The position numbers and the translations under genes are program-made. A stretch of 37,954 nt of DNA, taken from positions 1 through 37,954 of the forward strand of contig MFPR01000028.1 in NCBI GenBank assembly GCA_001784175.1. The letters are read 5' to 3'. Every line of letters begins with the position of its first letter. Position 1 is the first letter of the stretch. The notes under the pieces were generated by a model that made no database searches, was not told the DNA's origin, and saw only the letters and a program-made list of their open reading frames with translations. Below are positions 3,001 to 24,698 of the stretch, piece after piece. This DNA is from Candidatus Lindowbacteria bacterium RIFCSPLOWO2_12_FULL_62_27 (lineage in GTDB: Bacteria > Lindowbacteria > 2-12-FULL-62-27).

Positions 3001-6000
3001 CGCGGGTCATCTGCTGACATTGCGTCCGGGTCTGCTCGCACTACCCGATCGCCCGATCCTGGAGGCGCGATGGTTTGACGGGCTGCGCGATACGCTGGGG
3101 ATTCTGGTGGATGCAGTGGGAGGCGACACGCCAAATTTGCTCGCGCAATTTCAGAAGGATGTGGAGTCTGCCTGCGATTCCCGCCCAACTACGCTCGCGA
3201 CGGCACGGCTCACTCTTGACCGGCTGGCAGCGCGGGCGGAGGAGTTGGCTCTCAGCCTCGACACTGCCCCCAAGACCGACGCGAGTTGGTGGGCGCAGGC
3301 GCTGGCCCGGCAATGCCATAGCGCCCTCGAAGAGCTGACGTTTCTCGCCGACTTCCCCGGCAACGGCGAAATCCCCACGCTACGCGAGCTGGCAAGACTC
3401 GATACACAGGCAGGCGAAGCCGCTCGTGCGCGGATGGCGGTTATCGAACGCCTGGCGCTGCAATCAAGCGAACTTGCGCGCATGGAGTATGACTTCCTGC
3501 ATGACAAGGAGAACCATCTATTGGCCATCGGGTATAACGTGGATGATCGCCGGCGGGATTCGAATGACTACGATCTGATGGCGTCGGAAGCGAGATTCTC
3601 CGCTTTCGTGGCGATTGCGCAGGGACAGGTGCCGCAGGAGAGCTGGTTTGCCCTCGGGCGTCAGCTCACGACCGCCGGCGGCTCGCCGGTTCTGCTTTCG
3701 TGGGGCGGTTCGATGTTCGAGTATCTCATGCCGCTTTTGGTGATGCCGACCTACGAAAACACTCTGCTCGACCAGACCTGTAAGGCGGCGGTGGAACGGC
3801 AGATCGAGTATGGGGTACAGCGTGGCGTGCCGTGGGGCATATCGGAATCAGGCTACAACACGGTCGACGTTCATTCCAACTACCAGTACCGCGCATTCGG
3901 TGTGCCCGGCATGGGGCTCAAACGCGGACTCGCCGAGGACCTGGTCATTGCGCCGTATGCTTCGGCGCTTGCGTTGATGGTGGCGCCCGAGGCGGCGTGT
4001 CTGAATCTCCAGCGACTCGCCGCCGAGGGGCTCGAAGGAAAATTCGGCTTGTATGAATCCATCGACTACACCCCTTCACGTCAACGGCCCGGGGAATCGA
4101 GCGCGCTGGTTCAGTCCTTCATGGCCCATCACCAGGGCATGAGTTTGCTGTCTTACGCCTACCTGATCCTGGATCGTCCGATGCAGAAGCGGTTCGAGTC
4201 GGACCCGCAGTTCCAGGCGACGCTGATGTTGCTCCAGGAGCGGATTCCCAAGACCATGGCGTTCTATTCGCACGCAGTCCAGGTTTCCGACATTCGCGCA
4301 TCTTCCGGCGGTGCCGAGACGCCTGTACGCGTACTGGACAGCCCCGACACGCCGATACCGGAAGTGCAGTTGTTGTCGAACGGCCGATACCACGTGATGG
4401 TCACGAACGCGGGCGGCGGATACAGTCAGTGGAAGAACCTCGCCGTTACCCGCTGGCGAGAAGACAGCACCTGCGACAACTGGGGCACGTTCTGTTACAT
4501 CCGCGACGTGTCAAGCGGGGAGTTCTGGTCAACCGCCCATCAGCCGACGCTCAAACGAGCGGGGACCTACGAAGCGATTTTCTCGGAGGGTCGGGCGGAG
4601 TTTCGCCGCCGCGACAACCATTTCGACAGCCATACCGAGATCGTGGTTTCGCCGGAAGATGACATCGAACTGCGCCGCGTCCATATCACCAACCGGTCCC
4701 GAACACCGAGAACGATTGACGTGACGAGTTACGCGGAGGTGGTTCTTGCGCCGTCGGACGCGGACGCGCTGCACCCGGCGTTCAGTAATCTTTTTCTTCA
4801 GACCGAGATTGTCGACCCGCGCCGGGCGATCCTCTGTACTCGCCGGCCCCGCTCCCGCGATGAGCCGGCGCCATGGATGTTTCACCTGATGGCCGTGCAC
4901 GGGGCCGCGGGGCGCATCGGAGAGATCTCCTACGAGACCGACCGCATGCGGTTTATCGGCCGCGGAAACACGGTCGCCACGCCCCAGGCCCTGAACGGTT
5001 CCGCTGCGCTCTCGGGAAGTCAGGGATCGGTGCTGGATCCGATTGTCGCCATCCGCCATCGCATCACAATCGAGCCGGACGAATCGGCAGCGATCGATAT
5101 CGTTTCCGGCGTCGGCGAAACCCGCGACGCCGCATTGAGCCTGGTCGATAAATACCAGGATCGGCGGATCGCGGATCGCGTCCTGGAACTGGCATGGACC
5201 CACGCCCAAGTGGTGCTGCGGCAGATCAATGCCACCGAGGCCGACGCGCAACTCTATGCGGGCCTGGCCGGATCTGTCATCTACGCCAATTCCTCGTTGC
5301 GCGCCGACTCCGCCATCCTCATTAAAAACCGCCGCGGGCAATCCGGCCTGTGGGGCTATGCCATTTCCGGCGATTTGCCGATCGTCCTCCTGCAGATCGC
5401 CGACCCGGCCAATATCGATCTGGTACGCCAACTGGTACAGGCCCACGCGTACTGGCGCTTGAAGGGGCTGGCCGTGGACCTGGTGATCTGGAACGAAGAC
5501 CGTGCCGGGTACCGGCAACTGCTCCAGGATCAAATCATGGGGCTGATTGCCGCGGGCGTCGAAGCGCAGGTGATCGATCGCCGAGGCGGCATCTTCGTGC
5601 GGCCGGCGGAGCAGATTTCGGCCGAAGACCGCATCCTGCTGCAATCGGTCGCGCGCGCCATTTTCACCGACAGCCGGGGAACGCTGGCGGAACAGATCGA
5701 CCGTCGCGGCCCGGCGGAAGTGCGAGTTCCGCGTCTCAAACCGACCCGAATCCACCGCGCCGAAATTCCAGCCGCCACCGGGTTGCCGCGCCGCGATCTC
5801 ACCCTCTTCAATGGACTGGGAGGATTTACCCGTGACGGGCGCGAATACGTCATCCAGACCTCGCCCGGGCAGGTGACGCCGGCGCCGTGGGCGAACGTGC
5901 TTGCGAATCCGCACTTTGGAACCGTCATCTCGGAAAACGGCCAAGCCTATACCTGGAGCGAGAACGCCCACGAATTCCGTCTCACCCCCTGGCACAACGA

Positions 6001-8275
6001 CCCGGTGAGCGATGCCGGCGGAGAAGTCTTTTACCTGCGTGACGAAGACAGCGGCCATTTCTGGTCTCCCACGCCGTTGCCCAGCCGCGGAGCCGGTTAT
6101 TACGTGACCCGCCATGGGTTCGGCTACAGCGTCTTCGAGCATACCGAGGGCGGCATTCGCTCGGAGCTGACGGTTTACGTGGCCGTGGACGCGGCGATCA
6201 AGTTCGCGGCGCTGAAAGTGCGCAACGAGTCGGGCCGGCCGCGCAGGCTCTGCGCGACCGGTTATGTGGAGTGGGTGCTGGGAGATTTGCGGCCGAAATC
6301 GGCCATGCACGTGACCACCGAAATTGACCCCAGCAGCGGAGCGCTTTACGCGCGCAATCCCTACAGCACGGAGTTCTCCGATCGCGTGGCGTTTTTCGAC
6401 GTCGACGACGCGACTCGCACGACCAGTTGCGACCGCACTGAATTCGTCGGGCGTAACGGCACGCTCAAGAATCCGGCCGCGATGAATCGCGTGCGTCTTT
6501 CCGGCAAAGTAGGAGTGGCGCTCGATCCCTGCGCCGCGATCCAGGTCGGTTTCGAGCTGGCAGCCGGACAAGAGCGTGAGATTATATTCAGACTTGGCGT
6601 CGGGCAGGATGCCCGGGCGACCGGCAACCTGGTGCAACGATTCCGGGGACCCACGGCCGCGCGTGGCGCGCTCGACGCGGTGCATCAATACTGGAATCAC
6701 ACGCTCGGCGCCGTGCAGGTGGAAACACCCGACCCGTCGCTCAATATGCTGACCAACGGCTGGCTTTTGTACCAGACGCTGGCATGCCGTCTTTGGGCGC
6801 GCAGCGGATACTACCAATCGGGGGGCGCATTCGGCTTTCGCGACCAATTGCAAGACGTGATGGCGCTGATCCACGCCGAGCCGCAATGCGTGCGCAAGCA
6901 GCTGCTCCTGTGCGCGAGCAGGCAGTATCAGGAAGGTGATGTCCAGCATTGGTGGCATCCGCCGGCGGGCCGGGGCGTGCGAACGCATTGTTCGGATGAT
7001 TACCTCTGGCTGCCGTTGGCGGTGTGCCGTTATGTTCTGACGACAGGCGACACCGGGGTACTGAATGAATCCGTTCACTTCCTCGAAGGCCGCCCGGTCA
7101 ACGCCGAGGACGACTCTTATTATGATCTACCCGGCCGTTCCGGCGAGGTGGCCAGCCTGTACCAGCACTGTGTGCGAGCCATCCAGACAGGACTCCGATT
7201 TGGTGAACACGGCCTGCCGCTCATGGGCACCGGTGACTGGAACGACGGCATGAATCTGGTGGGAAATAACGGTAAAGGCGAAAGTGTCTGGTTGGGATTC
7301 TTCCTGCATACCGTGCTCACGCAGTTCACGGCGGTGGCGCGTTTGCAGGGTGACTCATCCTTCGCCGGGCGTTGCGAAGATGCGGCGCTTCGGCTGCGCC
7401 AGAACATCGAACAGCATGGCTGGGATGGCGGGTGGTACCGCCGCGCTTACTTCGACGACGGCACGCCACTGGGATCGGCAGCCAACCCCGAGTGCCAGAT
7501 TGATTCGATTTCGCAGAGCTGGGCGGTTCTATCCGGGGCGGGCGATGTCCAGCGCGCGAGGCAGGCCATGGAAGCGATGGATCAGCGCCTCGTGCGCNNN
7601 NNNNNGCAGGCCATGGAAGCGATGGATCAGCGCCTCGTGCGCCGGGACCATGCATTGATCCAACTATTGGATCCGCCGTTCGACAAGTCGCCGTTGAATC
7701 CCGGCTATATAAAAGGATATGTCCCGGGCGTGCGCGAGAACGGCGGGCAGTACACGCATGCGGCGATCTGGGCGGCCATGGCGTTTGCCCGATTAGGCGA
7801 CAGCCGGCGCGCCTGGGAACTGTTGGCCATGATCAACCCGGTAAAGCACGGAACAACTCCGGAAGCGGTGGCAACCTACAAAGTCGAGCCCTACGTTGCC
7901 GCCGCCGATGTCTATGCGCTCGCACCGCACACCGGCCGCGGTGGATGGACCTGGTACACGGGTTCGGCCGGCTGGATGTATCGGCTGATCGTGGAATCTC
8001 TCCTGGGCTTGAGGCTGGAAGTGGACAAACTGCATTTCGACCCGTGCCTCCCGGCGGATTGGAATGTGTTCAAGATGCACTACCGGTATCGGGAGACGGT
8101 CTACCACATCGTCGTCACGCAAACTCACGCCCGTGACGATGACAAGATCGGCGGGATGCGTGTAACGGTTGACGGTGTTGAACGACCCGACAAGGCCATT
8201 GCTCTGGTCGATGACCGTCAGGAACACCTGGTCGAGGTGCGCGTCGACGCCGCCGGCCGCGCGGCGGCGCGATAG
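2..8275 (+). CDS. ndvB: Cyclic beta-1,2-glucan synthase (Cgs/ChvB/NdvB type: GT84 synthase, TM region, glucoamylase-like region, C-terminal GH94 phosphorylase); 5'-truncated by the window edge
   Basis: Motifs GELWAIPIMLRLALIENLRR, MDFATRDRYRH, GYERKRGKL, TLDTDT, SHDLLEG, RRHRWIRGDWQ, SWGGSMFEYLMP, YQSGGAFGFRDQLQD, GDWNDGMN, RENGGQYTH and WYTGSAGW. The frame is open back to base 2 (HGPSSGLPRVYDIA), so the real start lies upstream. Contains an N gap at 7598-7605. Confidence 0.95.
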   Translation, partial: HGPSSGLPRVYDIALETIAHGDGRVDPESLLRFVASYQSVTALKLGELWAIPIMLRLALIENLRRVAARTAAGRIDRNLADSWANRMTEIAEKDPKNLILAIADMARSSPPMTTPFVSELVRRLQGQSHALALPLTWIEQRLAESNLTIEQLVQSGNQQQAADQVSISNSIGSLRFLGSMDWREFVETMSVVEQTLREDPAGAYGEMDFATRDRYRHVIERIARHSGLSEVDVARKAIDQARASAAVKGVDFRRTHVGFYLIDRGLPLLERSAGIRLSTSEALRRTVGRVPLLLYVGAIMLITLVLTGALLMHARSSGRPDWAFMLLGVLAALSTGHLAVALVNWLATLLVPPHPLPRMDFSRGIPPDCRTLVILPTMLTRVQNIEDLIEALEVRFLANRDDNLHFGLLTDFPDAAEETLPGDDPLLRLAETRIKKLNEKYRGAAGDTFFLFHRPRRWNPRDRIWMGYERKRGKLAELNSFLRGGSKDRFSLVVGKTDVLSNVKYVITLDTDTQLSRDCARQFVGAMAHPLNRARYDEDKQRVCEGYGILQPRVSASLPGTNRSRYAQLYGGDSGIDPYTRAVSDVYQDVFQEGSFIGKGIYDIDVFERSLKDRFPENRILSHDLLEGCYARAGLLSDVQLYDDYPARYSTDVSRRHRWIRGDWQIARWLWRDVPKLEEHSRQKNPLSALSQWKILDNLRRSFAPAALTLLLVLGWTVLSPIRIWTFSVIGIILIPPLLASILEILHKPSDVIWGRHLAAAVYSAGRRFAQAVFTLACLPYEAFFSLDAIARSIGRMLVTHRRLLEWNPSNESEHDVRTDLIASFRSMWIAPVIAVAATIHLLVSAPAALAVAGPILFLWFASPAIAWWISRPLVRREAKLTAGQTLFLRKLSRKTWAFFETLVGPEDHWLPPDNYQENPVAAVAHRTSPTNMGLALLANLSAYDFGYISAGQLIERTTNALHTMEGMERHRGHFYNWYDTLSLKPLNPAYISSVDSGNLAGHLLTLRPGLLALPDRPILEARWFDGLRDTLGILVDAVGGDTPNLLAQFQKDVESACDSRPTTLATARLTLDRLAARAEELALSLDTAPKTDASWWAQALARQCHSALEELTFLADFPGNGEIPTLRELARLDTQAGEAARARMAVIERLALQSSELARMEYDFLHDKENHLLAIGYNVDDRRRDSNDYDLMASEARFSAFVAIAQGQVPQESWFALGRQLTTAGGSPVLLSWGGSMFEYLMPLLVMPTYENTLLDQTCKAAVERQIEYGVQRGVPWGISESGYNTVDVHSNYQYRAFGVPGMGLKRGLAEDLVIAPYASALALMVAPEAACLNLQRLAAEGLEGKFGLYESIDYTPSRQRPGESSALVQSFMAHHQGMSLLSYAYLILDRPMQKRFESDPQFQATLMLLQERIPKTMAFYSHAVQVSDIRASSGGAETPVRVLDSPDTPIPEVQLLSNGRYHVMVTNAGGGYSQWKNLAVTRWREDSTCDNWGTFCYIRDVSSGEFWSTAHQPTLKRAGTYEAIFSEGRAEFRRRDNHFDSHTEIVVSPEDDIELRRVHITNRSRTPRTIDVTSYAEVVLAPSDADALHPAFSNLFLQTEIVDPRRAILCTRRPRSRDEPAPWMFHLMAVHGAAGRIGEISYETDRMRFIGRGNTVATPQALNGSAALSGSQGSVLDPIVAIRHRITIEPDESAAIDIVSGVGETRDAALSLVDKYQDRRIADRVLELAWTHAQVVLRQINATEADAQLYAGLAGSVIYANSSLRADSAILIKNRRGQSGLWGYAISGDLPIVLLQIADPANIDLVRQLVQAHAYWRLKGLAVDLVIWNEDRAGYRQLLQDQIMGLIAAGVEAQVIDRRGGIFVRPAEQISAEDRILLQSVARAIFTDSRGTLAEQIDRRGPAEVRVPRLKPTRIHRAEIPAATGLPRRDLTLFNGLGGFTRDGREYVIQTSPGQVTPAPWANVLANPHFGTVISENGQAYTWSENAHEFRLTPWHNDPVSDAGGEVFYLRDEDSGHFWSPTPLPSRGAGYYVTRHGFGYSVFEHTEGGIRSELTVYVAVDAAIKFAALKVRNESGRPRRLCATGYVEWVLGDLRPKSAMHVTTEIDPSSGALYARNPYSTEFSDRVAFFDVDDATRTTSCDRTEFVGRNGTLKNPAAMNRVRLSGKVGVALDPCAAIQVGFELAAGQEREIIFRLGVGQDARATGNLVQRFRGPTAARGALDAVHQYWNHTLGAVQVETPDPSLNMLTNGWLLYQTLACRLWARSGYYQSGGAFGFRDQLQDVMALIHAEPQCVRKQLLLCASRQYQEGDVQHWWHPPAGRGVRTHCSDDYLWLPLAVCRYVLTTGDTGVLNESVHFLEGRPVNAEDDSYYDLPGRSGEVASLYQHCVRAIQTGLRFGEHGLPLMGTGDWNDGMNLVGNNGKGESVWLGFFLHTVLTQFTAVARLQGDSSFAGRCEDAALRLRQNIEQHGWDGGWYRRAYFDDGTPLGSAANPECQIDSISQSWAVLSGAGDVQRARQAMEAMDQRLVRXXXQAMEAMDQRLVRRDHALIQLLDPPFDKSPLNPGYIKGYVPGVRENGGQYTHAAIWAAMAFARLGDSRRAWELLAMINPVKHGTTPEAVATYKVEPYVAAADVYALAPHTGRGGWTWYTGSAGWMYRLIVESLLGLRLEVDKLHFDPCLPADWNVFKMHYRYRETVYHIVVTQTHARDDDKIGGMRVTVDGVERPDKAIALVDDRQEHLVEVRVDAAGRAAAR
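7561..7642. other. Scaffold gap (8 N) flanked by an exact 37-bp duplication; assembly artefact
   Basis: gcaggccatggaagcgatggatcagcgcctcgtgcgc occurs at 7561-7597 and again at 7606-7642. Removing 45 nt keeps the frame. Confidence 0.9.
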
Positions 8276-13788: not shown

Positions 13789-15801
13789 GTGGCTGACAAC
13801 AATCATCTTGATCAGTTGTGCATCAACACCATCCGGACGCTTTCCATGGACGCGGTCCAGAAGGCCAATTCGGGACACCCGGGCACGCCGATGGCGCTGG
13901 CGCCGGTGGCTCACGTTTTGTATGACCGGTATCTCCGGTTCAACCCCAAAAATCCGAACTGGCCCAACCGCGACCGATTCATTCTTTCGGCGGGCCACGC
14001 GTCGATGCTGCTCTACAGCACCCTGCACATCAACGGATTTGATCTGCCGCTGAACGAACTCAAAAATTTCCGCCAATGGAACAGCAAGGCCCCCGGGCAC
14101 CCCGAGTACGGGATGACGCCGGGCGTCGAAACGACCACGGGACCGCTTGGGCAGGGTGTGGCGAACTCGGTGGGATTCGCGATGGCCCAGAAGTGGCTCG
14201 CGGCCCATTTCAACCGGCCGGGTCACGACATCGTCGATTACCGGATTTTCGCCGTCTGCGGCGACGGATGCATGATGGAGGGCGTGTCGGGTGAGGCCGC
14301 GTCGATTGCGGGACACTTGGGACTCGACAATCTTGTTTGGATTTATGACAACAACCACATCACGATCGAGGGAAACACAGCGCTCGCGTTCACCGAGGAC
14401 GTCGCGGCCCGCTTCATGGCCTACCACTGGAACGTCCAGCGCGTCGGCGACGCCAACGACTTGGACCTTTTGACGAACGCGTTCGGCACGGCGCTCAAGG
14501 AAACCGGTCGGCCCACGCTGATTATCGTCGACAGCCACATCGCCTACGGCGCGCCGAACAAGCAGGACACCTCCGGCGCGCACGGCGAGCCCCTGGGCGA
14601 AGAGGAGATTAAACTGACCAAACAGCGATATGGATGGCCGGCCGACAAGCAGTTCTGGGTGCCGGACGAGGTCGCGGCCCGGATGAATACGATGGCGGAC
14701 CGCGGCCAGAAACTGGAATCGGAGTGGAACCAAAAATTCGAGGCGTATCGGAAGGCCCATCCGGACCTCGCGGAGGAATTCCTCCGGATGCAGAAGGGCG
14801 ACCTGCCGCCCGATTGGGACAAGGACCTGCCGACCTATCCGGCGGACCCGAAGGGCGTGGCGGGCCGGGACTCGTCGAGCAAGACGCTGGCGGCGATCGC
14901 CAAGCGCGTTCCGTATCTGGTGGGCGGCTCGGCGGACCTGACGCCGTCGACGAAGACGCGGATCCCGGACGGCGGGGATTTTCAGAAGGGATCCTACGCC
15001 GGCCGCAACCTGCATTTCGGAATCCGCGAGCACGGCATGGGTTCGATCCTCAACGGCATGGCGCTGTCGAAACTCCGGGTCTACGGCTCGGGCTTTTTGA
15101 TTTTCTCGGATTACTGCCGGCCCACCCTGCGGCTGGCGGGGCTCATGGAGATTCCGGTTCTGCACATCTTCACGCACGATTCGATCGGTGTCGGCGAGGA
15201 TGGCCCCACCCACCAGCCGATCGAACATCTCGTGTCGCTTCGCGCGATCCCGCACCTTGTGGTGATCCGCCCCTGCGATGCCAATGAAACCGTGGAGGCA
15301 TGGCGGTGGATCATGAAAAACAGAACCCATCCCGTCGCGCTCATCCTAAGCCGCCAGGCTCTGCCCACCCTCGATCGGACGAAATTTGCGCCGGCCTCCG
15401 GGCTCCACAAAGGCGCCTACATCCTCGCGGACGGTGGCGGCGCGCCGCAGGTGATCCTGATGTCGACCGGATCCGAAGTCCAGTTCTGCATGGAGGCGCA
15501 CGAGAAACTGAAGGCGGAAGGCATCCGGTCGCGCGTGGTGAGTTTTCCGTCCTACGAGATTTTCGAGATGCAGTCCGAGGATTACCGCAACGAAGTTTTG
15601 CCGCCGGCGTGCCGCAAGCGCGTCGCGGTCGAGGCCGCGTCCACGCTCGGCTGGCGCCGCTATGTCGGCATCTACACCGACGGCGCCGTGATCGGCCGCA
15701 AGGAATTCGGCGCCTCGGCGCCGCTCAAGGAACTGCTCAAACAGTTCGGGTTCACCGCCGACCACGTCGCGGCGGAGGCGAAGGCGCTCCTGAAGGGCTG
15801 A
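13789..15801 (+). CDS. tkt: Transketolase, bacterial/yeast type (670 aa)
   Basis: [59 protein letters not shown] and FGASAP. RBS AAGGAGG lies upstream of the GTG. Confidence 0.97.
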
Positions 15802-15864
15802 GGGGGTAAAAACTCAGCTTGTTCTCTTGCGCTTGGCGCGGGTCAAAGGCTAAGCTGGGAATTC

Positions 15865-16068
15865 ATGCACCAGTTCACGGGCAAAGTGATCATGATCCTG
15901 ATCATTATTTCCTTTTTCCTGGGCGCTCTCGTCGTGACGTTCAACGACGAGTACACCCTGGAGAAAAACATTCATTCGAACCGGCATTACTACCCGTCCG
16001 TCAAGGTGGGGGAGGAGGCGCGCAAGGCCGGCGACGCTGAGGAGGCCGATCGTGATCAAGGATATTAA
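15865..16068 (+). CDS. Small single-pass membrane protein (67 aa), unknown function
   Basis: Hydrophobic stretch VIMILIIISFFLGALVVTF and GC-rich third codon positions. It overlaps the next gene by 17 nt and contains that gene's RBS. Confidence 0.65.
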   Translation: MHQFTGKVIMILIIISFFLGALVVTFNDEYTLEKNIHSNRHYYPSVKVGEEARKAGDAEEADRDQGY

Positions 16069-19000
16069 TTTCAAATCCCTGGCGGTAAAACTATGGAAGG
16101 ATTTTCTGTACTTTCTCTCCAACCCCATCCCCCTCAGCTTTTCCAAGATGAACACCTATCAGACGTGCGCGTACAAGTACAAACTGATTTATCTCGACCG
16201 GCAGCCCGGCAAGCCCAGCCCGTATCTGGCCTACGGCACGGTGATGCACGACACGCTGTTCGAGTTTGAGAGCATCCCGCGGGGCGTGAAGCGCGACTAC
16301 GCGGACCTCGAGCGGATCTTCCAAAAAAACTGGAACCTCCACTTCGAGTCCTACCGCCGAAAATGGGGCAAAAGCCTGTATGACCTGATCGCCGCCGAGA
16401 AAAACACGCCGGCCGAGGAGCTTGAAAAAGCGGCCTATGACACCGCCGTCATCATGCTGAAAAACTACTGGCGCGACGAGTCCAAAAATCCGAACAAGGT
16501 CCGCTACGTTGAGAAATGGCTCTTCGGCGAGCTGGGCCACTACCACGTGACGGGCCGGCTCGACCGGCTGGACCAGCGGCCGGACGGGCATTACGAGATC
16601 ATCGACTACAAGACCGGCCAGCGCATCTACGACGCCGACACCCTCAAGGACGCATCCCGCGGATACGGCCTTCAGGCCGGTGTCTATTACGAAATGTGCC
16701 GGTCGGCATGGCGCGACCGGGTCGACCGGTTCATTTTCAAATACCTGCAAAAACGGCAGACGCTGATGGAGCATCTGGCTTCGGAGTGGATCGACACTGT
16801 GGTGGGCGCCGCGCGCGGTGCGCTGAGCAGTGCGCCGGAGTCGGCCATTCCCGGCGGCGCGGCGGTGGATCCGGCCGCGCTGACCGCGACGGCACTCCAC
16901 GCGGTGCGGGACAAACTGGAGGAAAAACTTCTGAAAAAAGTTCTGGCCGAGTGCGAAGAGGAACGGGTCCGGAAGGAAGTTCGGAAGATCCGTCTGGAGG
17001 AGGAGCAGGAGATCCTGAACGAGCTGGACGAGGCGGCGCGCCCGACGGCGCGGGTGTTTCTGAAGGCCCTGAACAAGGCGCTGGAGGACCGGATCACCGC
17101 CGAGGTCGATCGGTCGGTCGAGAAACTCGACGATCCCGAAGGCGTCCGCGGCGTGATCCGTGAGGCGCTCAAGGCGCTGGACGAGGGCAGGGTCGGCGAC
17201 TGCGTGTCGGCGTGTGTGAAAAACGTCGAAACGCAGTTCAGGTCTCTGGCGGGCGCCGTCGCATGGCCGAATCTTGCGACACCGGAACGCGAGCGGATCG
17301 TGAACGAGATCATCGAGACGCTGTACCGGCGCGAAATCAAGGACACGTGCGCCGCGTATCTTCAGGCGATGACGCCGGAGAAACTGGCGCGGAGTGCGGA
17401 GGCGGCTCTTTCGGCCGCGCCGGACATCCGCCCCGACCAGCGGCCGGCGCTGATCAGGCACGTGCTCGATACCCTGCGGGCGTCGTTTGCCCGCAGTCTG
17501 GACGCGTACACGCCGGACGAGATCGCCCGCGTTATCGCCGAGTCGACACCGCCGAATTTTCTGACGAGCGAGCACGTCGAGCGCACGAACCGCCTGCTGG
17601 ACCGGCTTGTGACCAGGACCGCCTTGCGGGAGGACAAGGCCGGGAGGAAACTCCCGGACGACGCAATCTCGGCCGCGCGCCGCAACATCATGCTGGCGCC
17701 GCTGGCCGACGTCATCAAACACATCGTCCGCGCCTGCCTCGACGGCGTGATCGCGGACCTGCGGGCGGAGAAATCCAGCGAGCTGACGGCCGCACTTCGC
17801 GGACAGTACCTCGGCGCGCTCCGGGCGCTGGCCGGCCCGCTCTTCGTTCAAACGGCGGCGCGAAAGGTCGCGGTCGCGTACGGCCGTCAGGCGTTTCATG
17901 AGATTTATTATCAAACGGCGGTCGTCCCGGTCGTCGATCACGTCACCCGCCTCTTCGAGCGGCCGGACGTGATGAAAATTTACGCGCAGATTGAGACGGG
18001 CCTGACCGAGCGCGACCGGAAGGCAAAAGCGCAGCGGCTGATCGAGAAGCTCAACTGGACGGATGCGGCGGCTCTGGTGGAGGAGAGTGTACGGCCCGTG
18101 CTCACGGCCTGGGAGGGAGCGCTCCAGGGGATCGCGGCCGGCGCGGTCGAAGAGGCGGTGGCCGCGTCGTTCTCGCCGGCGGACCTCGAGGCCGTCCTGG
18201 ACCGCGCCGCCGAACTTTTTGAAAATCGCCTCGAACGCGTCTGCACGCTCGACGTCGAAGTCCCCTACGCGCCGGAAACGCGCGAGAACGTGATCCGCGC
18301 GATCGAACAGGTGCAGGACGGCATCCGGCGGAACGAATTCTCGACGGCCCGCGGCGCGCTCTGCGGCTGGTGCGAGTATCAGTCCGGCTGTCCGGCCTGG
18401 TGCCGGTACCGGGACATCTGCAAGGACACCTGCAAGGACGAGTACCACTGCAAGCGCTGGTTCGACGAGAAGACCGGCCGGCTGGTGGAGGGCCGGCCGC
18501 CGGACATGACGCACGAGGAGTATCTGCGGCGGATCGAAGCGAAGTACGAAGTCACCGACCGGTCGCTCTTCCGGCTGTCGTTCTCCAAGATGAATTCCTA
18601 TGAGTTGTGCCCGATGAACTACCGCAAACTCTATCTGGACCATGTGTCGCCGAAACCCAAGTCGTTTTTCTCCATCGGCCTTTCATTTCACCAGACCATG
18701 GAGGACCTCTACGCCTACCACGGCCCGCACCAACAGCCGTCGCTGAAGATGCTGCTGGACCTGTTCAGGAAAAAATGGATTTCGGCCGGATACCGCAGCC
18801 GCGAGGAGGAGGATTTCAATTTCCGCCGCGGGCTGCGGATGTGCGAGGACTATTACGAGGCCTACATCGACGGCGCCTACAAGCCGGCGGGCGCCGCCGA
18901 GGATTACTTCGAGTTCAAACTCGGCCGCACGCTCCTCTGCGGATTCATCGACCGCGTCGACATGAACGAGGATGGCAGCATCTCGATCATCGACTATAAG

Positions 19001-19471
19001 ACAAACCCGAAACTCTACACGCAGGAGGAACTCGACGAGGACCAGCAGATGACGATCTACTACCTGGCCGCGCGCGAGGGCAAGCTCGAGAGCGTCAAGT
19101 ACAAGCCGGTCGAGGTCAAACAATTTATTTTTCAGTTCGTCAATTTCTGCAAGGACCTCGTCGCCACGCGCGATGCGTCCTATCTCGGGGCCCTGCAGGA
19201 TCGTGTGCGGCAGTTCACCGAGGAGATGGAGTGGCGGCAAAAGGTCTACAAGGATTCGAAATTCGATCCCCGTGCCGGCATGCTCCTGTTCCCGCCCCAG
19301 GACAACAAATACTGTCAGTCCTGCGACCACCACCATCTCTGCCCGCTCAAGACCGACATGACGCTGACCGGCGAGGTCCAGAAAAAGGGGACGCAGTTTG
19401 AGGATGGCGTGGACGCCAAGGAGTTGGCGGAAGAGTCGACGGATCGTGTCGCGACGTACGATGTTGCCTGA
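16052..19471 (+). CDS. Tandem PD-(D/E)XK nuclease (two RecB/AddB/Cas4-like iron-staple domains) with a large helical insertion in domain 1
   Basis: Domain 1: LSFSKMNTYQTC39, YGTVMH, GRLD171, IID185YK187, Q208xxxY212, C771xxC774x5C780. Domain 2: LSFSKMNSYELC853, IGLSFH, GFID967, IID981YK983, QMTIY, C1088xxC1091x5C1097. RBS GAGGAGG at 16039-16045 precedes GTG 16052. Confidence 0.9.
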   Translation: MIKDINFKSLAVKLWKDFLYFLSNPIPLSFSKMNTYQTCAYKYKLIYLDRQPGKPSPYLAYGTVMHDTLFEFESIPRGVKRDYADLERIFQKNWNLHFESYRRKWGKSLYDLIAAEKNTPAEELEKAAYDTAVIMLKNYWRDESKNPNKVRYVEKWLFGELGHYHVTGRLDRLDQRPDGHYEIIDYKTGQRIYDADTLKDASRGYGLQAGVYYEMCRSAWRDRVDRFIFKYLQKRQTLMEHLASEWIDTVVGAARGALSSAPESAIPGGAAVDPAALTATALHAVRDKLEEKLLKKVLAECEEERVRKEVRKIRLEEEQEILNELDEAARPTARVFLKALNKALEDRITAEVDRSVEKLDDPEGVRGVIREALKALDEGRVGDCVSACVKNVETQFRSLAGAVAWPNLATPERERIVNEIIETLYRREIKDTCAAYLQAMTPEKLARSAEAALSAAPDIRPDQRPALIRHVLDTLRASFARSLDAYTPDEIARVIAESTPPNFLTSEHVERTNRLLDRLVTRTALREDKAGRKLPDDAISAARRNIMLAPLADVIKHIVRACLDGVIADLRAEKSSELTAALRGQYLGALRALAGPLFVQTAARKVAVAYGRQAFHEIYYQTAVVPVVDHVTRLFERPDVMKIYAQIETGLTERDRKAKAQRLIEKLNWTDAAALVEESVRPVLTAWEGALQGIAAGAVEEAVAASFSPADLEAVLDRAAELFENRLERVCTLDVEVPYAPETRENVIRAIEQVQDGIRRNEFSTARGALCGWCEYQSGCPAWCRYRDICKDTCKDEYHCKRWFDEKTGRLVEGRPPDMTHEEYLRRIEAKYEVTDRSLFRLSFSKMNSYELCPMNYRKLYLDHVSPKPKSFFSIGLSFHQTMEDLYAYHGPHQQPSLKMLLDLFRKKWISAGYRSREEEDFNFRRGLRMCEDYYEAYIDGAYKPAGAAEDYFEFKLGRTLLCGFIDRVDMNEDGSISIIDYKTNPKLYTQEELDEDQQMTIYYLAAREGKLESVKYKPVEVKQFIFQFVNFCKDLVATRDASYLGALQDRVRQFTEEMEWRQKVYKDSKFDPRAGMLLFPPQDNKYCQSCDHHHLCPLKTDMTLTGEVQKKGTQFEDGVDAKELAEESTDRVATYDVA

Positions 19472-19477
19472 CCTCTG

Positions 19478-22400
19478 ATGGCCGCGTTCAGTTCCGCTGC
19501 GGTCCCCGCCGCGCCGGCCGCGCGGCCGCACCGGTTCGACACCTATCTCAAGTCCGTTTTCATCAATATGGTTCGCTATCTCGAAGTCTGCGCATTGCCG
19601 TATCTGGCGGGCATCGCGTCCGGGGTCGGTTTTGACCTGAAAATCCCGCCGGCCGTCTGGGCGGCGCTGTCGACGCTCGGGGTATGGGGAACGGTCCTGG
19701 TCCTCTATGGACCGATCATCCTTCTTCACGCGTTTTTCATCCAGTGGATGAAAACGCGCCACCCGGAACAAAGTCCGATCGTGTTTCTGGAGGACGGCGT
19801 GACGGAACACCGGTGTACGGTCTTCCTGGCCGTCCTCGCGGCCTGCGTATCGATCGTGTTCGGCGTGATCAACTACAATTTCGCGGTCGACATCTCGCAT
19901 CCCCGGCACATTTCGCGGCACGTCGTGAAACCCTGGGAAACCAACCCGGTGAGCCTGGACGGCAAGATCGTCCGGGAGCCGGATTTCCGCGAGCATGCGG
20001 TGTGGCTGTATCTTCAGCCTCGCATGCTCGACGGCCGCGAACCGATCGAAAAGGGCCTCGTGCTCGTCCAGGTGGCCCGGACCGTCGAAGGGTTCGAGGA
20101 ATTCGAGTACGGCCAGCACATCCAGGTGAAGGGCAATCTCGTCGAGCCGGAAGCCGCCACCAATCCCGAGACGTTTGATTACAAGCGCTGGCTCAACAAC
20201 CGGAACGTCTTCGGCCTCATCCGCATCAACAAGCCGGAAAACGTCCGGTACCTGGGCGTCCGCGAATCCAACCCCGTCTTTGATATCTCGCTCTGGGTCA
20301 AGAAAAAATTCCTCGGCATCATGAAACAGACCCTGCCCTACCCGCACTCGGCCTTTCAGGGCGGGATTATCTACGGCCTGAAAACCGGCCTCGATCCGGT
20401 AATCCATTTCGAATTCAAGTGGGCCGGCATGGCCTGGGTCCTCGTCGTCGCCGGCGCGCACCTCCTCATGGTCTACCTCACGCTGAAAATGATATTGGAA
20501 AGCATCCGGCCGAACCCGAAAATCGCCTTCACGGTGCTGTTTGTGCTCCTGATCATGTTCCTGATCCTGACCGGCATCAACCCGCCGACCGTCCGGGCCT
20601 TCATCATGATCATGCTCTACGAATTCACCAAGGTATTCCTGGGCCAGGACATCCGGGCGGCCGTGCGGAGCGCCATCGGGATCGCGGCGTTTTTGCTGCT
20701 GTCCTCGCACGTCTTTCCATATTTTTCTCCGCTCCTCATCTTTGAGCCGACCGTCACGCTCTCCTTCGGCGCGGTGCTGTCGCTCGTGTATCTGTCCCGG
20801 CCGATCGAACACATGCTCCGGCGATACTGCTACGGCATGACCAGCGTGGTCGTGCTCGGGGGTGTGACGGCGTCGCTGGTGTATCTCAGCCTCAAGCGCC
20901 CCGTGACGCTCTCGCTCATGTTCTGGCAGCAGATCCCCATCTGGGTCGTCACGCTCATCTGCGCCGTGATCACCGCGCGCATCAACGACAGGTACCGGGA
21001 CCGGTATCAGCTCGATCAAATTTATCTCGGATACAACGACCCGGCCCGATTTCACGGGTGGCTGCGCTGGATCCATCCGACCTTCCTGACGTACAACAAC
21101 CTTCCCCGCTGGGTTCTCGGCTTCGTCGGCGCGCAGATCGCCATCCAGTTCGGCATGGTCATGCCGCTGTCGAGCTGGTATTTCCAGCGCTCGCCGGTAG
21201 GCGGGCTGCTCGCCAACATCGTCGCGTTTCCGGCGCTTGGCGTGATCATCCAGGTGGGCCTCGTGGCGGTCCTCATCGGCATGATTCCCGTGATCGGCCT
21301 GCCGCTCGCGTTCATTCTGAACGCCGCCGATTATCTGGGCATCGAGCTTCTCATGTTCCTCGCGCGGGTCAGCAAGGAATTTTTCCCGTACCCGATGGCG
21401 ATGAAACCGACGGGGTCACAGCTCCTCCTTTATTACGGAATCCTTTTTGGATTCGTGTTGTTCGACAAGATTTTTTATTCGTTCGAAAAACATGGGTATC
21501 TCACGCTGCGGGAGGTTCTCGAGCAAAAATTCCTGTTCACCAAACGGCCGTTCTACGCGCGGATGATCCGGGTGCTGAGCACGCCCAAACGCGAATGGCT
21601 CTTCGTCGGCGTCGTGGCCGTTTTGCTCGCCGGCGTCGGATGTTACATGGCCCAGGGCCGGAAGCTGGACCATCTCAAGATCATCGTGATGGAACTCGAC
21701 GAAGGCGCCGGCACGGTGATCATGACGCCGGGCGGGACGCGGTTCCTCGTCGACGGCGGCGGCGTCTCATGGAACCCGCGGTTCAACGTCGGCGAACGCA
21801 CCGTCGCGCAGGTCCTCTTGGGACAGCAGATCGAGCACATCGACGCGGTCTTCATCACTTCGTTCAACTCCACCAACATCGGCGGCCTTCCGTTCATCCT
21901 CGAAAATTTTACGGTGGGCCGCGTGTTCGTTCCGTACGATCCCGCGATCCTCACGTCGGACGAGGAATTCACCAGCCACAACTACATGGAACTGGCGGCG
22001 AAGGTCGACCGGGAGGGTGACCGCGCCAAGATTTCGATGATGGTCCGGCGCGGGCGGGTGAGCACGAAGCAGGTGGTGGAATCGATCGAGGCGATCCGAA
22101 AGGCTGTCCGGAGCCGGCAGATTCCCGTGTCGCGTCTGTCGGAGGGCGCGCAGGTCCTCAAGGGCAGCGACGTCCAGATCGATGTCCTGAACCCCGTCGC
22201 GGACAAATCCGCGATGGCGGGCCGCGGCCTCGTCAACAATGGGTTGGTCCTTCGGATCACCTACGGCGGAAACTCGGTCCTGTTGCCGGGCGACCTGGAC
22301 GCCGACGGCGAGGCGGAACTGATCGCACGCGCGAAAAATTTGAAATCGAGATTTGTCCTCGTGCCGGCGCACGGCGACGAGGAATCAAGCGGTGATGCGT

Positions 22401-22771
22401 TTCTGAAAGCCGTGCAACCGGAGTACGCCGCGGTTCAGTACCGCCGGCCTTTCCGGCGCCCGACGGACCGCGCGCGGCTTGATCGCCTGATCCGGCGTCT
22501 CGAATCCGCCGGCATCAAGGTGGACGTCCGGATGGAGGACCTGGATGCCTTTGAGCAGGTGGTCCGGCTCTATGAGGCGGCGGGCGCCAAAGTCCTGCGG
22601 ACGGATCTGAATGGCGCCATCCTCATCGACGCCTGGGCCGACGGCCGCTTCTCGGTATCGCCGATGCTCAAAACCGCGCAGAAGGAAATCGCGGCCGAGA
22701 CGGAAGCCGACGAGTCGGACACCGACGTCCAGGACCGGTCGATGCTCAAGAGCGAAGGGACGGGGTTGTAG
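19478..22771 (+). CDS. comEC: ComEC/Rec2 family DNA-uptake channel (OB/DUF4131, Competence and degenerate metallo-beta-lactamase domains)
   Basis: OB-domain motif QVKGNL.EP..ATNPETFDYKRWL; Competence-like F..AG....VVAGAH, TVRAFIM, TLSF and LLANIVA; MBL-fold LVDGG, LPGDL, VPAHG and RTDLNGAI; many TM segments. Confidence 0.9.
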   Translation: MAAFSSAAVPAAPAARPHRFDTYLKSVFINMVRYLEVCALPYLAGIASGVGFDLKIPPAVWAALSTLGVWGTVLVLYGPIILLHAFFIQWMKTRHPEQSPIVFLEDGVTEHRCTVFLAVLAACVSIVFGVINYNFAVDISHPRHISRHVVKPWETNPVSLDGKIVREPDFREHAVWLYLQPRMLDGREPIEKGLVLVQVARTVEGFEEFEYGQHIQVKGNLVEPEAATNPETFDYKRWLNNRNVFGLIRINKPENVRYLGVRESNPVFDISLWVKKKFLGIMKQTLPYPHSAFQGGIIYGLKTGLDPVIHFEFKWAGMAWVLVVAGAHLLMVYLTLKMILESIRPNPKIAFTVLFVLLIMFLILTGINPPTVRAFIMIMLYEFTKVFLGQDIRAAVRSAIGIAAFLLLSSHVFPYFSPLLIFEPTVTLSFGAVLSLVYLSRPIEHMLRRYCYGMTSVVVLGGVTASLVYLSLKRPVTLSLMFWQQIPIWVVTLICAVITARINDRYRDRYQLDQIYLGYNDPARFHGWLRWIHPTFLTYNNLPRWVLGFVGAQIAIQFGMVMPLSSWYFQRSPVGGLLANIVAFPALGVIIQVGLVAVLIGMIPVIGLPLAFILNAADYLGIELLMFLARVSKEFFPYPMAMKPTGSQLLLYYGILFGFVLFDKIFYSFEKHGYLTLREVLEQKFLFTKRPFYARMIRVLSTPKREWLFVGVVAVLLAGVGCYMAQGRKLDHLKIIVMELDEGAGTVIMTPGGTRFLVDGGGVSWNPRFNVGERTVAQVLLGQQIEHIDAVFITSFNSTNIGGLPFILENFTVGRVFVPYDPAILTSDEEFTSHNYMELAAKVDREGDRAKISMMVRRGRVSTKQVVESIEAIRKAVRSRQIPVSRLSEGAQVLKGSDVQIDVLNPVADKSAMAGRGLVNNGLVLRITYGGNSVLLPGDLDADGEAELIARAKNLKSRFVLVPAHGDEESSGDAFLKAVQPEYAAVQYRRPFRRPTDRARLDRLIRRLESAGIKVDVRMEDLDAFEQVVRLYEAAGAKVLRTDLNGAILIDAWADGRFSVSPMLKTAQKEIAAETEADESDTDVQDRSMLKSEGTGL

Positions 22772-24641
22772 CTTTTTCTCTCTGCCGGACCGCCTGCATG
22801 ATCGCGCGTTTTGAAATGTCCTCATAATCTAGCAGTTCCTCGGGTTTGCCGCTCTTCGGAAGTTTCCTCACGGCCAGTTTCGTGACGCGCACGGGTGTGT
22901 CCGCAAGCGCGCTCAGCACGGCCTCGCCCAGGCCGCCCTCCGCGAAGTGGTCCTCGACGGTGACGATGTGTCCGGTGTCGGCCGCGGCTTTTCTCAGAGT
23001 CTGGGCGTCGATGGGTTTGATGCTGTACAGATCGATGACGCGTATGGGGGTGCCGTCGCGCCGAAGCTCTTCGGCGGCGGCGAGCGCCTCGTGCAGCGTG
23101 ATGCCCGCCGCAACCACCGTGGCCGCGTCCCGGTCGCTCTGCCGTAAAACCTTGCACCCGCCGATGGGAAACTCGTCCTGCGGGCCGTAGAGGAGGGGCG
23201 TTTCCTTGCGCGTCGTTCGGAGATACACCATCCCGACATGACGCGCCGCCTCCTCCACGAGTCTGGCTGCCGACCATGCGTCGGCCGGATAGAGAACGAC
23301 ACTGCCGAGGATCGCGCGGAACATCGCGATTTCCTCCAGCCCCATCTGGGACGGGCCGTCCTCGCCGATGGAAACGCCGGCGTGTGATCCGACGAATTTG
23401 ATGTTCGCACGCGAATACTGGCTCATCCGGATCTGATCGTACGCGCGCGTCAGAAAGGCGGCAAAGGTCGAAACAAACGGGATTTTGCCCCGGCGTGAGA
23501 GGCCCAGCGCAACGCCGGCCATGTTCTGCTCTGCGATGTACATTTCGAAAAACCGGTCCGGATGGGCCTGCGCAAAGATTTCGGCGTAGGTGGAATTGCT
23601 TGTTTCCGCGTCGAGCACGACGATGTTCGGATATTTTTTGAAGGCCGTCACCAGCGCCTGCCCGTAGGCTTTCCGCGTCGGCGTCGGCTTGTCAAACGCC
23701 AGCGGCGCCGCGCGCTCCACGGCCGGTTTCCGCGCGCCGGGGGGAATTTTGTACGGCAACGGTTTGGCCGGCGCCGCCGTCAAAGACTGATCGACGGGCC
23801 CGAGTTCCTTCAGGACGCGATCGAGTTCCTGCGGCGTCACGGGCTTGCCGTGCCAGTTGTCCTTGTCGGCCAGATACCGCGTTCCGGCGCCTTTCAACGT
23901 TTTCGCCACGATCATGACGGGCTTGCCCCGTACCGCGATCGCCTGCCGGTATGCCGCGAGGATTTTCGGAAGCGAGTGCCCGTCGACCGACAGCGTGTGC
24001 CATCCGAAGGCCGATACGCGCCGAATGTATGCTTGGATGTCGTGACCATACATTGTCTGGCCGCGCTGCCCCAGCCGGTTGACATCGAGGATTCCGACGA
24101 GATTGTCGAGCTTGTAATGCGCAGCGATCTGAATGGCTTCCCATTGGGATCCTTCCGCCATCTCGCTGTCGCCGAGAAGCACGTATGTCCGGTAGCCGAC
24201 GCGGTCGAGGTACTTCGCATTGAGCGCCATCCCGACTCCGATGGAAAGTCCCTGCCCGAGCGACCCGGTGGCGGCCTCGGTGTAGGGAAAGGCCATGGCC
24301 GGATGGCCTTCGAGCGGGCTGTTCAATTTGCGCAGCGTCAGAAGTTCTGATGGAGTGAGCTTGCCGGCCACCGAAAAGAGCGCATAGAAAAGCGGCGATG
24401 CGTGACCTTTGGAGAAGATCAGCCGGTCGTTGTTGGGATGCTCCGGCCGGTCGAGGTCGAAGCGGAATATCCCGCCGAACATCAGCGCCGTCATGAGGTC
24501 CGTCGCCGACATCGATGAGGTCGGATGGCCGGACCCGGCCCGCGTGGTGGACATGAGAATGTGATGCCGGATCAGCCGTGCGATCCCGGCCAGCCGGCCG
24601 TCTTTGAGAGGTATGGATTTTTTTCGTCGCACTCTCACCAT
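22746..24641 (-). CDS. tkt: Transketolase, animal-TKT-like single-chain type (~630 aa)
   Basis: SGHPTSS, NDRLIFSKGH, ATGSLGQG, LLGDSEMAEG, NRLGQ, TRKAYGQAL, IAEQNM, GSHAGVSIGEDGPSQM, VEDH and PKSGKPEELL. ATG 24641 is preferred over the ORF-track start 24656. The 3' end overlaps comEC by 26 bp. Confidence 0.93.
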   Translation of the reverse strand: MVRVRRKKSIPLKDGRLAGIARLIRHHILMSTTRAGSGHPTSSMSATDLMTALMFGGIFRFDLDRPEHPNNDRLIFSKGHASPLFYALFSVAGKLTPSELLTLRKLNSPLEGHPAMAFPYTEAATGSLGQGLSIGVGMALNAKYLDRVGYRTYVLLGDSEMAEGSQWEAIQIAAHYKLDNLVGILDVNRLGQRGQTMYGHDIQAYIRRVSAFGWHTLSVDGHSLPKILAAYRQAIAVRGKPVMIVAKTLKGAGTRYLADKDNWHGKPVTPQELDRVLKELGPVDQSLTAAPAKPLPYKIPPGARKPAVERAAPLAFDKPTPTRKAYGQALVTAFKKYPNIVVLDAETSNSTYAEIFAQAHPDRFFEMYIAEQNMAGVALGLSRRGKIPFVSTFAAFLTRAYDQIRMSQYSRANIKFVGSHAGVSIGEDGPSQMGLEEIAMFRAILGSVVLYPADAWSAARLVEEAARHVGMVYLRTTRKETPLLYGPQDEFPIGGCKVLRQSDRDAATVVAAGITLHEALAAAEELRRDGTPIRVIDLYSIKPIDAQTLRKAAADTGHIVTVEDHFAEGGLGEAVLSALADTPVRVTKLAVRKLPKSGKPEELLDYEDISKRAIMQAVRQREKATTPSLRS

Positions 24642-24698
24642 TTGATTATGATACACCGATTCGTTCGAAAGACAAGTTTGGTTTTAAGTTTTTTGAAT

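Follow-up and report, generated by a model that had tools for sequence, protein, structure and literature searches.

ComEC is described as moving single-stranded DNA (ssDNA) in the 3'-to-5' direction into the cytoplasm, to ComFA/ComFC (PMC13539106; bioRxiv 10.1101/2025.05.09.652193), and a single ComEC is reported for 89% of proteomes (PMC6299819). The aspartates of motif II are given in PMC8579336 as necessary for the nuclease activity of ComEC, and the same article calls it an open question how the non-transported strand is removed when the C-terminal domain of ComEC is inactive. The stretch of DNA analyzed here (the window) corresponds to the initial 37,954 bases of contig C28 from Candidatus Lindowbacteria bacterium RIFCSPLOWO2_12_FULL_62_27, a 4.39-Mb metagenome-assembled genome that is 94% complete. 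It carries three genes encoding a small single-pass membrane protein, a twin Fe-S nuclease with two PD-(D/E)XK domains, and a ComEC paralogue. Together they make up a ComEC-linked functional unit that is conserved in a number of bacterial lineages without cultured members, and they constitute a conserved, rare and undescribed three-part variant of the DNA-uptake machinery, the purpose of which we infer below.

The ComEC paralogue of the window shares its plan of OB/DUF4131, Competence and metallo-beta-lactamase (MBL)-fold domains with the ComEC/Rec2 proteins of Bacillus and Moorella/Neomoorella (PDB 30bt, 9ic4 and 9vc6). It differs from them in that it is without the four ligands of motif II, scores below equivalog level, is ~ 250-300 amino acids (aa) longer and is one of four paralogues in its genome. 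Moreover, ComEC of this type is encoded together with the twin nuclease and the small membrane protein instead of with comEA/comEB.

Linkage of the twin nuclease to ComEC

The phylum is represented by only four species-level genomes, and twin nucleases were found in all four. In these genomes and at locus L006, seven twin-nuclease genes were identified, and each of them directly precedes a ComEC paralogue. The source genome itself carries a second module, on contig C33, in which a compact twin nuclease of 576 aa (2716-4446) is followed by a 72-aa open reading frame (ORF; 4465-4683) and a 964-aa ComEC (4686-7580).

A metagenome scan yielded 79 loci, the neighboring genes of which were classified with hidden Markov models built from our own alignments. 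Complete twin nucleases were encoded at 37 loci. ComEC was present within 3.5 kb at 24 of them and a ComEC-type MBL gene only, on a truncated contig, at one; four had neither despite at least 3.5 kb of sequence on both sides, and eight lay on contigs too short to tell. Once identical and near-identical tree rows had been removed, 18 ComEC-linked, one MBL-only and three unlinked loci were left. The first-pass annotation of the window had taken the three genes for a single DNA uptake or processing system, and the survey of nuclease-homologue neighborhoods agrees with this, as 19 of the 22 informative distinct loci lie beside ComEC or a ComEC-type MBL gene. Among the control loci, ComEC was found beside none of 15 distant PD-(D/E)XK genes; it was likewise found at 0/11 loci for multi-repeat forms (three to five tandem units) and 0/26 for single-domain relatives of 401 aa, two groups in which full 3.5-kb flanks were available at only three loci each.

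In a quick IQ-TREE phylogeny, for which midpoint rooting was used for drawing only, a clade of 27 rows (SH-aLRT 98) contained 23 ComEC-linked nucleases, four of unknown linkage and none that was unlinked. All of the unlinked twins fell on the other side of the tree, as did the multi-repeat forms and a single linked pair (L084/L091). Three gene orders were observed, namely small protein-nuclease-ComEC, nuclease-small protein-ComEC and small protein-ComEC-(ComEA)-MBL-nuclease, and 4-nt overlaps between the genes were frequent. Typical MBL-encoding operons are those of L084 (small protein-ComEC-ComEA-MBL-nuclease) and L079 (small protein-ComEC-nuclease-MBL-alkaline phosphatase). The names of the homologue sources, which include Candidatus Hydrogenedentota, Syntrophomonadaceae and Bacillota, suggest that the module spans several phyla.

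The 67-aa protein is no artefact and forms a third conserved part of the module. A motif scan detected a protein with the SNxxYYP signature at 21 of the 24 ComEC-linked twin-nuclease loci, and the three loci at which it was not detected form one clade in which ComEC begins at or near the contig edge. The same scan detected it at none of the 41 other loci covered (0/4 unlinked twins, 0/11 multi-repeat forms and 0/26 single-domain forms), and in the whole source genome it was found only in the two modules.

Active sites and partners of the module

The 1139-aa nuclease matched Pfam PF12705 (PDDEXK_1) in three stretches, with an E-value of 9.6e-52 and 176.8 bits (cut-off 22). Its AlphaFold2 (AF2) model (pLDDT 85.7, pTM 0.83) gave Foldseek matches of the nuclease units to AdnA/AdnB, ACE1 (9iab_A, TMt 0.72), AddB, Exo5 and Cas4. 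Domains of the Cas4, AddB, Exo5 and Dna2 type act on ssDNA ends. The alignment and residue table verified the two intact PD-(D/E)XK domains that had been read from the window before, with every catalytic and Fe-S residue kept, that is, the catalytic Asp, D-x-K, Q...Y and a four-Cys cluster in each domain (Table 1). Across the 30 twin nucleases tabulated, the C-terminal unit was intact in all 30, and all eight cluster cysteines were invariant wherever the sequence was complete. The helices of the long insert in the first domain (H238-H722) were mostly modeled with pLDDT > 85, and neither a convincing Foldseek match nor an ESM Atlas match was found for it. Residues C784, C790, C794 and C800 of the linker are invariant in the long form only; they could form a second metal site.

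Table 1. Features of the three-gene locus, with positions numbered from the first base of the window.
Feature	Position	Strand	Details
Earlier candidate promoter, TTGCGC-18-TAAGCT	15827-15856	+	Weak, unsupported
Small single-pass membrane protein, 67 aa	15865-16068	+	Transmembrane (TM) helix ~ aa 8-26, then tail motif SN-x-x-YYP-x-V (here SNRHYYPSV)
Shine-Dalgarno-like GAGGAGG	16039-16045	+	Within 3' end of gene 1, 6 nt ahead of nuclease GTG; read from sequence
Twin Fe-S PD-(D/E)XK (Cas4/AddB-type) nuclease, 1139 aa, long form	16052-19471	+	PF12705; GTG start
N-terminal nuclease core, aa 28-237	16133-16762	+	C39, D171, D185-Y-K187, Q208...Y212; invariant in six long-form sequences
All-helical insert, ~ 485 aa (aa 238-722)	16763-18217	+	Separates N-domain core from its Cys triad; absent in short (~ 576 aa) form
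Cys-rich linker	18362-18451	+	C771-x2-C774-x5-C780, completing N-domain Fe-S cluster with C39; then C784, C790, C794, C800
C-terminal nuclease domain, aa 838-1098	18563-19345	+	C853, D967, D981-Y-K983, Q999...Y1003, C1088-x2-C1091-x5-C1097
ComEC paralogue, 1097 aa	19478-22771	+	OB/DUF4131, Competence channel domain, pseudo-MBL C-terminal domain
MBL-fold C-terminal domain, metal site predicted to be dead	21671-22663	+	Foldseek to 9ic4; motif readings

Full-length homologues of the 1139-aa protein numbered five among 5.8 billion proteins. In a set of 1.84 billion representative proteins, 31 of the best 150 rows (E up to 1e-103) mostly cover both units, a few being truncated or partial. The nuclease belongs to the PF12705 Fe-S nucleases but is neither Cas4 in the strict sense nor AddB: the CRISPR Cas4 model TIGR00372 scored 18.2 bits against a cut-off of 65 and no cas genes are present in the window, and AddB/AdnAB membership failed on the lack of a helicase domain and on TIGR02773 and TIGR02786 scores far below the cut-offs. 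Because it has no signal peptide or Tat motif and carries two Fe-S clusters, the protein is predicted to be cytoplasmic, and an earlier caveat to this effect is upheld.

Other nuclease architectures were met in the scan. Nine loci (L076, L077, L082, L083, L087-L089, L095 and L102) encode 1282-1463-aa proteins in which five Fe-S PD-(D/E)XK units stand in tandem, three of them single and two forming a twin, and no ComEC or small protein was found near them. Loci L103-L128, from many sediment and soil metagenomes, encode uniform single-domain Fe-S nucleases of 401-403 aa that are related to the C-terminal unit, and no ComEC was found nearby in the three of these loci with full flanks. A GYF domain suspected by eye in the N-terminal extension of another nuclease, P0007, was not found by Pfam.

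In the ComEC paralogue, Pfam recognized DUF4131 (69.5 bits, cut-off 31.6) and Competence (PF03772; 89.2 bits, cut-off 23), the latter in two stretches with an insertion in the domain, and Lactamase_B reached only 18.7 bits, below its cut-off of 22.7. The ComEC/Rec2 model TIGR00361 gave 108.9 bits against a cut-off of 190.05, which makes the protein a divergent paralogue, not an equivalog; phmmer nevertheless aligned it with the solved ComEC 30bt_A (E 3.1e-31). The AF2 model (pLDDT 73.4) places the beta-strands of the OB region at aa 157-260, and its C-terminal domain matched the ComEC beta-lactamase-like domain 9ic4 by Foldseek with E 1e-16 and TMt 0.84. Motif II reads TSFNSTN (aa 794-800; 21857-21877), compared with THPDADH in the solved Moorella-type ComEC, and the other motifs read LDEGAGT (I; 21695-21715), GDLD (IV, which is kept) and AHGDE (V). 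The loss of the metal-binding nuclease motif noticed at first sight was thus borne out, with all four motif II ligands replaced and the MBL fold retained. The C-terminal domain is folded but, judged from these residues, catalytically dead.

Motif II was kept in 0/23 ComEC rows, comprising 21 encoded beside a twin nuclease, the second ComEC of L006 and the unlinked C26 paralogue, vs 16/20 more distant ComECs found via the C-terminal domain, the gene context of which is not known. It was also absent from three close orthologues found by the same route. Motif II loss is indeed associated with this module. The further idea that adjacency to the nuclease and motif loss would co-occur stands as far as this comparison goes, but the loss is not confined to linked copies, since the C26 paralogue has lost the motif as well.

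Some of the ComEC paralogues carry additional segments. Those at L079 (1669-5052) and L096 (1842-5225) have an SNase-like segment (PF00565) within the OB region, and the L079 operon continues with a twin nuclease, an intact MBL and an alkaline phosphatase. The nuclease-linked ComEC at L006 (11399-15037) has an N-terminal GYF_2 domain, and a second ComEC paralogue (4514-7531) lies in divergent orientation just upstream of the L006 module.

Many of the related operons also encode a protein of 335-464 aa that combines an N-terminal TM anchor with a ComEC-type MBL domain. In 14 of the 17 rows aligned, this stand-alone MBL had intact motifs II (HPHxDH), IV (GD(I/V)E) and V (HHGS) together with the anchor. 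Two genes of this kind are present in the source genome (C26:69117-70157 and C28:161296-162069); the first belongs to a ComEC-ComEA-MBL-ComEA cluster that has an NDK-containing ORF upstream of it.

For the 67-aa protein, Pfam and NCBIfam searches gave no match. Its homologues share a common plan of a short N terminus, a TM helix and then SN-x-x-YYP-x-V, and their genes stand before the nuclease in long-form loci, between nuclease and ComEC in compact pairs, and directly before ComEC in ComEC-first operons. The SNxxYYP protein is a new small ComEC-associated protein family. A complex prediction was made with the paralogous C33 pair in place of the window's own proteins, and the C33 small protein with residues 38-964 of the C33 ComEC scored 0.45, the best of three controls scoring 0.01 (verdict 'weak support'). 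The runs shared at least 62% of contacts, and the partner pLDDT was at least 58. Of 80 solved complexes, 58 attained the pass mark of this procedure, as did 2 of 110 mismatched pairs; scores of 0.60 or below were seen for only seven of the 80 solved complexes, plus both of the mismatches that passed. The small single-pass protein is probably a channel subunit of the ComEC paralogue.

The remaining competence genes lie outside the window. Neither comEA, comF nor dprA was found among the 20 large window ORFs scanned, as had been said of the window before, and their matches are on other contigs. The four ComEC paralogues of the source genome are at C2:39520-41610, C26:70889-73840, C33:4686-7580 and 19478-22771 of the window. 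The C2 protein (696 aa) has the Competence domain only and is encoded next to a comEA-like gene, forming a canonical comEA-comEC pair, and DprA is also present in the genome. ComEA-type HHH_3 matches number 32 in the source genome; none is on contig C28, so that the test for a canonical comE operon there failed. These matches occur at C33 ~ 62-105 kb and C26 ~ 68-117 kb, many of them in proteins of 280-2200 aa that have multiple repeats and cluster on C33, a pattern suggestive of a large expansion of surface proteins that bind DNA. On C20, a ComF-like gene scored 82.9 bits, below the cut-off of 233.55, and the control also scored in all 14 genomes, so that this match is uninformative.

The three window ORFs are on the same strand, and their coordinates and tight coupling were re-derived exactly as first annotated, with a 17-nt overlap of genes 1 and 2 that has the ribosome-binding site inside and 6 nt separating gene 2 from gene 3. 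Alignment of the N termini of orthologues backs the GTG as the start of the nuclease. A promoter of their own had been proposed as well (Table 1). Its letters are present, but a promoter role did not hold up: by our own count, the match to the consensus is at 3/6 + 3/6 positions, and a promoter scan did not call the site and found one promoter-like site in the region against 1.8 expected from shuffles. Eight sequencing runs are listed for the locus, all of them DNA, from groundwater or soil metagenomes.

Both flanks consist of housekeeping genes, with those for ClpB, a transglutaminase-like protein, an M48 peptidase and transketolase upstream and those for a convergent transketolase-like protein and a cobalt ECF transporter downstream. 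The module sits between the transketolase gene (13789-15801) and the convergent transketolase/DXS-like gene (22746-24656), the latter ORF overlapping the ComEC stop region by 26 nt. At window positions 2-8275, a 5'-open ORF of > 2750 aa, with GH94 supersandwich and catalytic domains and a glucoamylase-like domain, resembles a giant glucan phosphorylase or synthase.

Proposed function and competing explanations

For the location of the nuclease, the direction of transport, the substrate and the purpose, one interpretation of these data is proposed. A ComEC-family channel with a dead external MBL domain, the small membrane protein and a cytoplasmic twin nuclease would act as one module and provide an extra uptake route, most likely for DNA scavenging; we regard this reading as about an even call. 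External double-stranded DNA would be captured by ComEA-like proteins. A separate MBL nuclease, anchored in the membrane, would degrade one strand on the outside; the gene for this MBL is in the same operon in relatives and at C26 and C28:161 kb in the source genome. The other strand would pass via the ComEC paralogue, and the twin nuclease would cut that strand on its emergence in the cytoplasm, so that DNA could be scavenged as a nucleotide or phosphate source rather than for transformation. Of these steps, cutting of imported ssDNA inside the cell is the most likely role of the twin nuclease, and nucleotide salvage is probably what the cutting is for.

The route is taken to be an extra one because the genome also has the canonical comEA-comEC pair and dprA. 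Scavenging is favored over transformation because of that C2 pair, DprA, the four ComECs, the 32 HHH_3 matches and the phosphatase and nucleotide-gene neighbors: an alkaline phosphatase gene follows the MBL gene in three loci, and genes for nucleoside phosphorylase, thymidylate kinase, NUDIX and NDK proteins are adjacent in single loci. A ComEC paralogue tied to a cytoplasmic nuclease, beside a canonical pair, is the type of system predicted by the DNA-as-nutrient idea, and a nutritional purpose would have implications for how extracellular DNA is turned over in groundwater and soil.

Several findings weigh against the scavenging route. A class I/II ribonucleotide reductase is present, so deoxynucleotide salvage is not obligatory, and deoxynucleotide auxotrophy, considered as an argument for feeding, is ruled out by it; a class III enzyme was not found in the source genome at its 94% completeness. 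Most of the nucleotide-metabolism neighbors were each observed once, in different lineages, and may be coincidental. The window operon is without an MBL or comEA gene of its own, and their supply in trans is an assumption. Finally, the N-terminal nuclease unit is catalytically degenerate in some linked lineages (L062-65, L079/96 and L084/91), as is the stand-alone MBL of the L062/63/65 clade, and for this reason the two-active-site design is not universal among linked lineages.

A stronger form of the proposal is possible, although we hold it as tentative. It could be that the module is a dedicated DNA-eating machine, in which the ComEC paralogue and the small subunit feed ssDNA to a twin nuclease docked on the channel, and MBL, ComEA and phosphatase complete a catabolic import pathway that is separate from transformation and duplicated within genomes. 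If true, this would be the first transporter-nuclease system specialized for environmental DNA as food.

Alternatively, the nuclease might serve gene acquisition by trimming or cutting incoming single strands to recombination-ready pieces, in the manner of end processing by AddAB/AdnAB. Its structural kinship with the AdnAB and AddB nuclease domains, the presence of DprA in the genome and the description of ComEC in PMC8579336 as the transformation channel in all studied species would fit such a role. However, the genome already has the canonical comEA-comEC pair at C2, the neighbors scanned in seven linked loci included no gene for a recombinase, SSB, DprA or helicase, and transformation alone hardly accounts for two or three paralogous modules in a genome, which leaves this explanation unlikely.

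An entry filter or defense system, in which the nuclease would destroy DNA arriving via the channel or attack invaders, as ACE1 does with Argonaute and Cas4 in CRISPR adaptation, is quite unlikely. The closest solved single-domain match is indeed ACE1, described in PMC12094033 as an Argonaute-associated Cas4-family enzyme, and PADLOC returns Cas4-type domain matches; these are at the level of the generic Cas4 domain only, with none for ComEC or the small protein. The window flanks are housekeeping genes, no cas, Argonaute or restriction genes were found among the neighbors scanned, and the partners of the nuclease are an import channel, ComEA and MBL rather than defense genes.

The score of the ComEC paralogue well below the ComEC/Rec2 equivalog cut-off (108.9 vs 190 bits), its dead C-terminal domain and the insertion in its Competence domain could mean that it no longer imports DNA, and that it exports DNA or only anchors a repair nuclease at the membrane. 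Against this, the protein has kept its OB fold, its channel domain and the fold of its C-terminal domain, and the operon partners in relatives (ComEA and the external MBL) are import-side components; loss of import is distinctly improbable.

As first formulated, the hypothesis was that nucleolysis had been handed over from ComEC to its partner, the PD-(D/E)XK protein replacing the MBL activity and degrading the non-transported strand. The part of it that survives is the conserved, ComEC-linked unit. The motif II counts (0/23 vs 16/20) are compatible with a replacement, but a take-over by the PD-(D/E)XK protein does not fit because the nuclease is predicted to be cytoplasmic and the ComEC C-terminal domain works outside the membrane: the missing signal or Tat motif and the two Fe-S clusters would put the enzyme on the wrong side. 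In addition, the unlinked C26 ComEC is also without motif II, and this version is very unlikely. Most plausibly, the dead ComEC domain is replaced by the split-off membrane-anchored MBL and not by the twin nuclease, because the related operons and the source genome carry intact membrane-anchored MBLs. Chance neighborhood with no functional link can be set aside as exceedingly improbable, as the linkage survives three gene orders, deep divergence (~ 30% identity) and two paralogous copies in one genome.

Relation to described systems

No description of a ComEC-linked Cas4-like nuclease, or of the small protein, was found in the literature searched, and the main text of a paper on Cas4 phylogenomics (PMC5704561) contains no occurrence of 'ComEC' or 'competence'. 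The module places one clade of 'solo' Cas4-like nucleases in a genomic context. It also makes two questions about competence testable, namely how the non-transported strand is removed without an active ComEC domain, for which the operons point to the split-off membrane-anchored MBL as the answer, and whether bacteria possess uptake routes that serve feeding on DNA instead of recombination.

The twin nuclease has the same fold as Cas4, AddB, AdnAB, ACE1 and Exo5, with D...(D/E)xK, QxxxY and a four-Cys cluster in each domain. Unlike these, it carries two such domains on a single chain that has no helicase, and the 485-aa helical insert of the long form splits the first of them. It is also without a cas1/cas2, Argonaute or helicase partner.

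On the transport side, the nearest functional analogies are pneumococcal ComEC/EndA and ComEC-ComFA-ComFC. Streptococcus pneumoniae likewise has a ComEC with substituted C-terminal metal ligands and a separate membrane nuclease for the non-transported strand, as described in PMC8579336; in the module, the putative external nuclease is a ComEC-type MBL, not EndA, and there is an extra nuclease, predicted to be cytoplasmic. The ComEC-ComFA-ComFC system of Firmicutes, as presented in bioRxiv 10.1101/2025.05.09.652193, likewise joins the ComEC channel to dedicated cytoplasmic receivers of ssDNA, whereas the putative cytoplasmic partner in the module is a nuclease, not a translocase or an ssDNA-binding pair.

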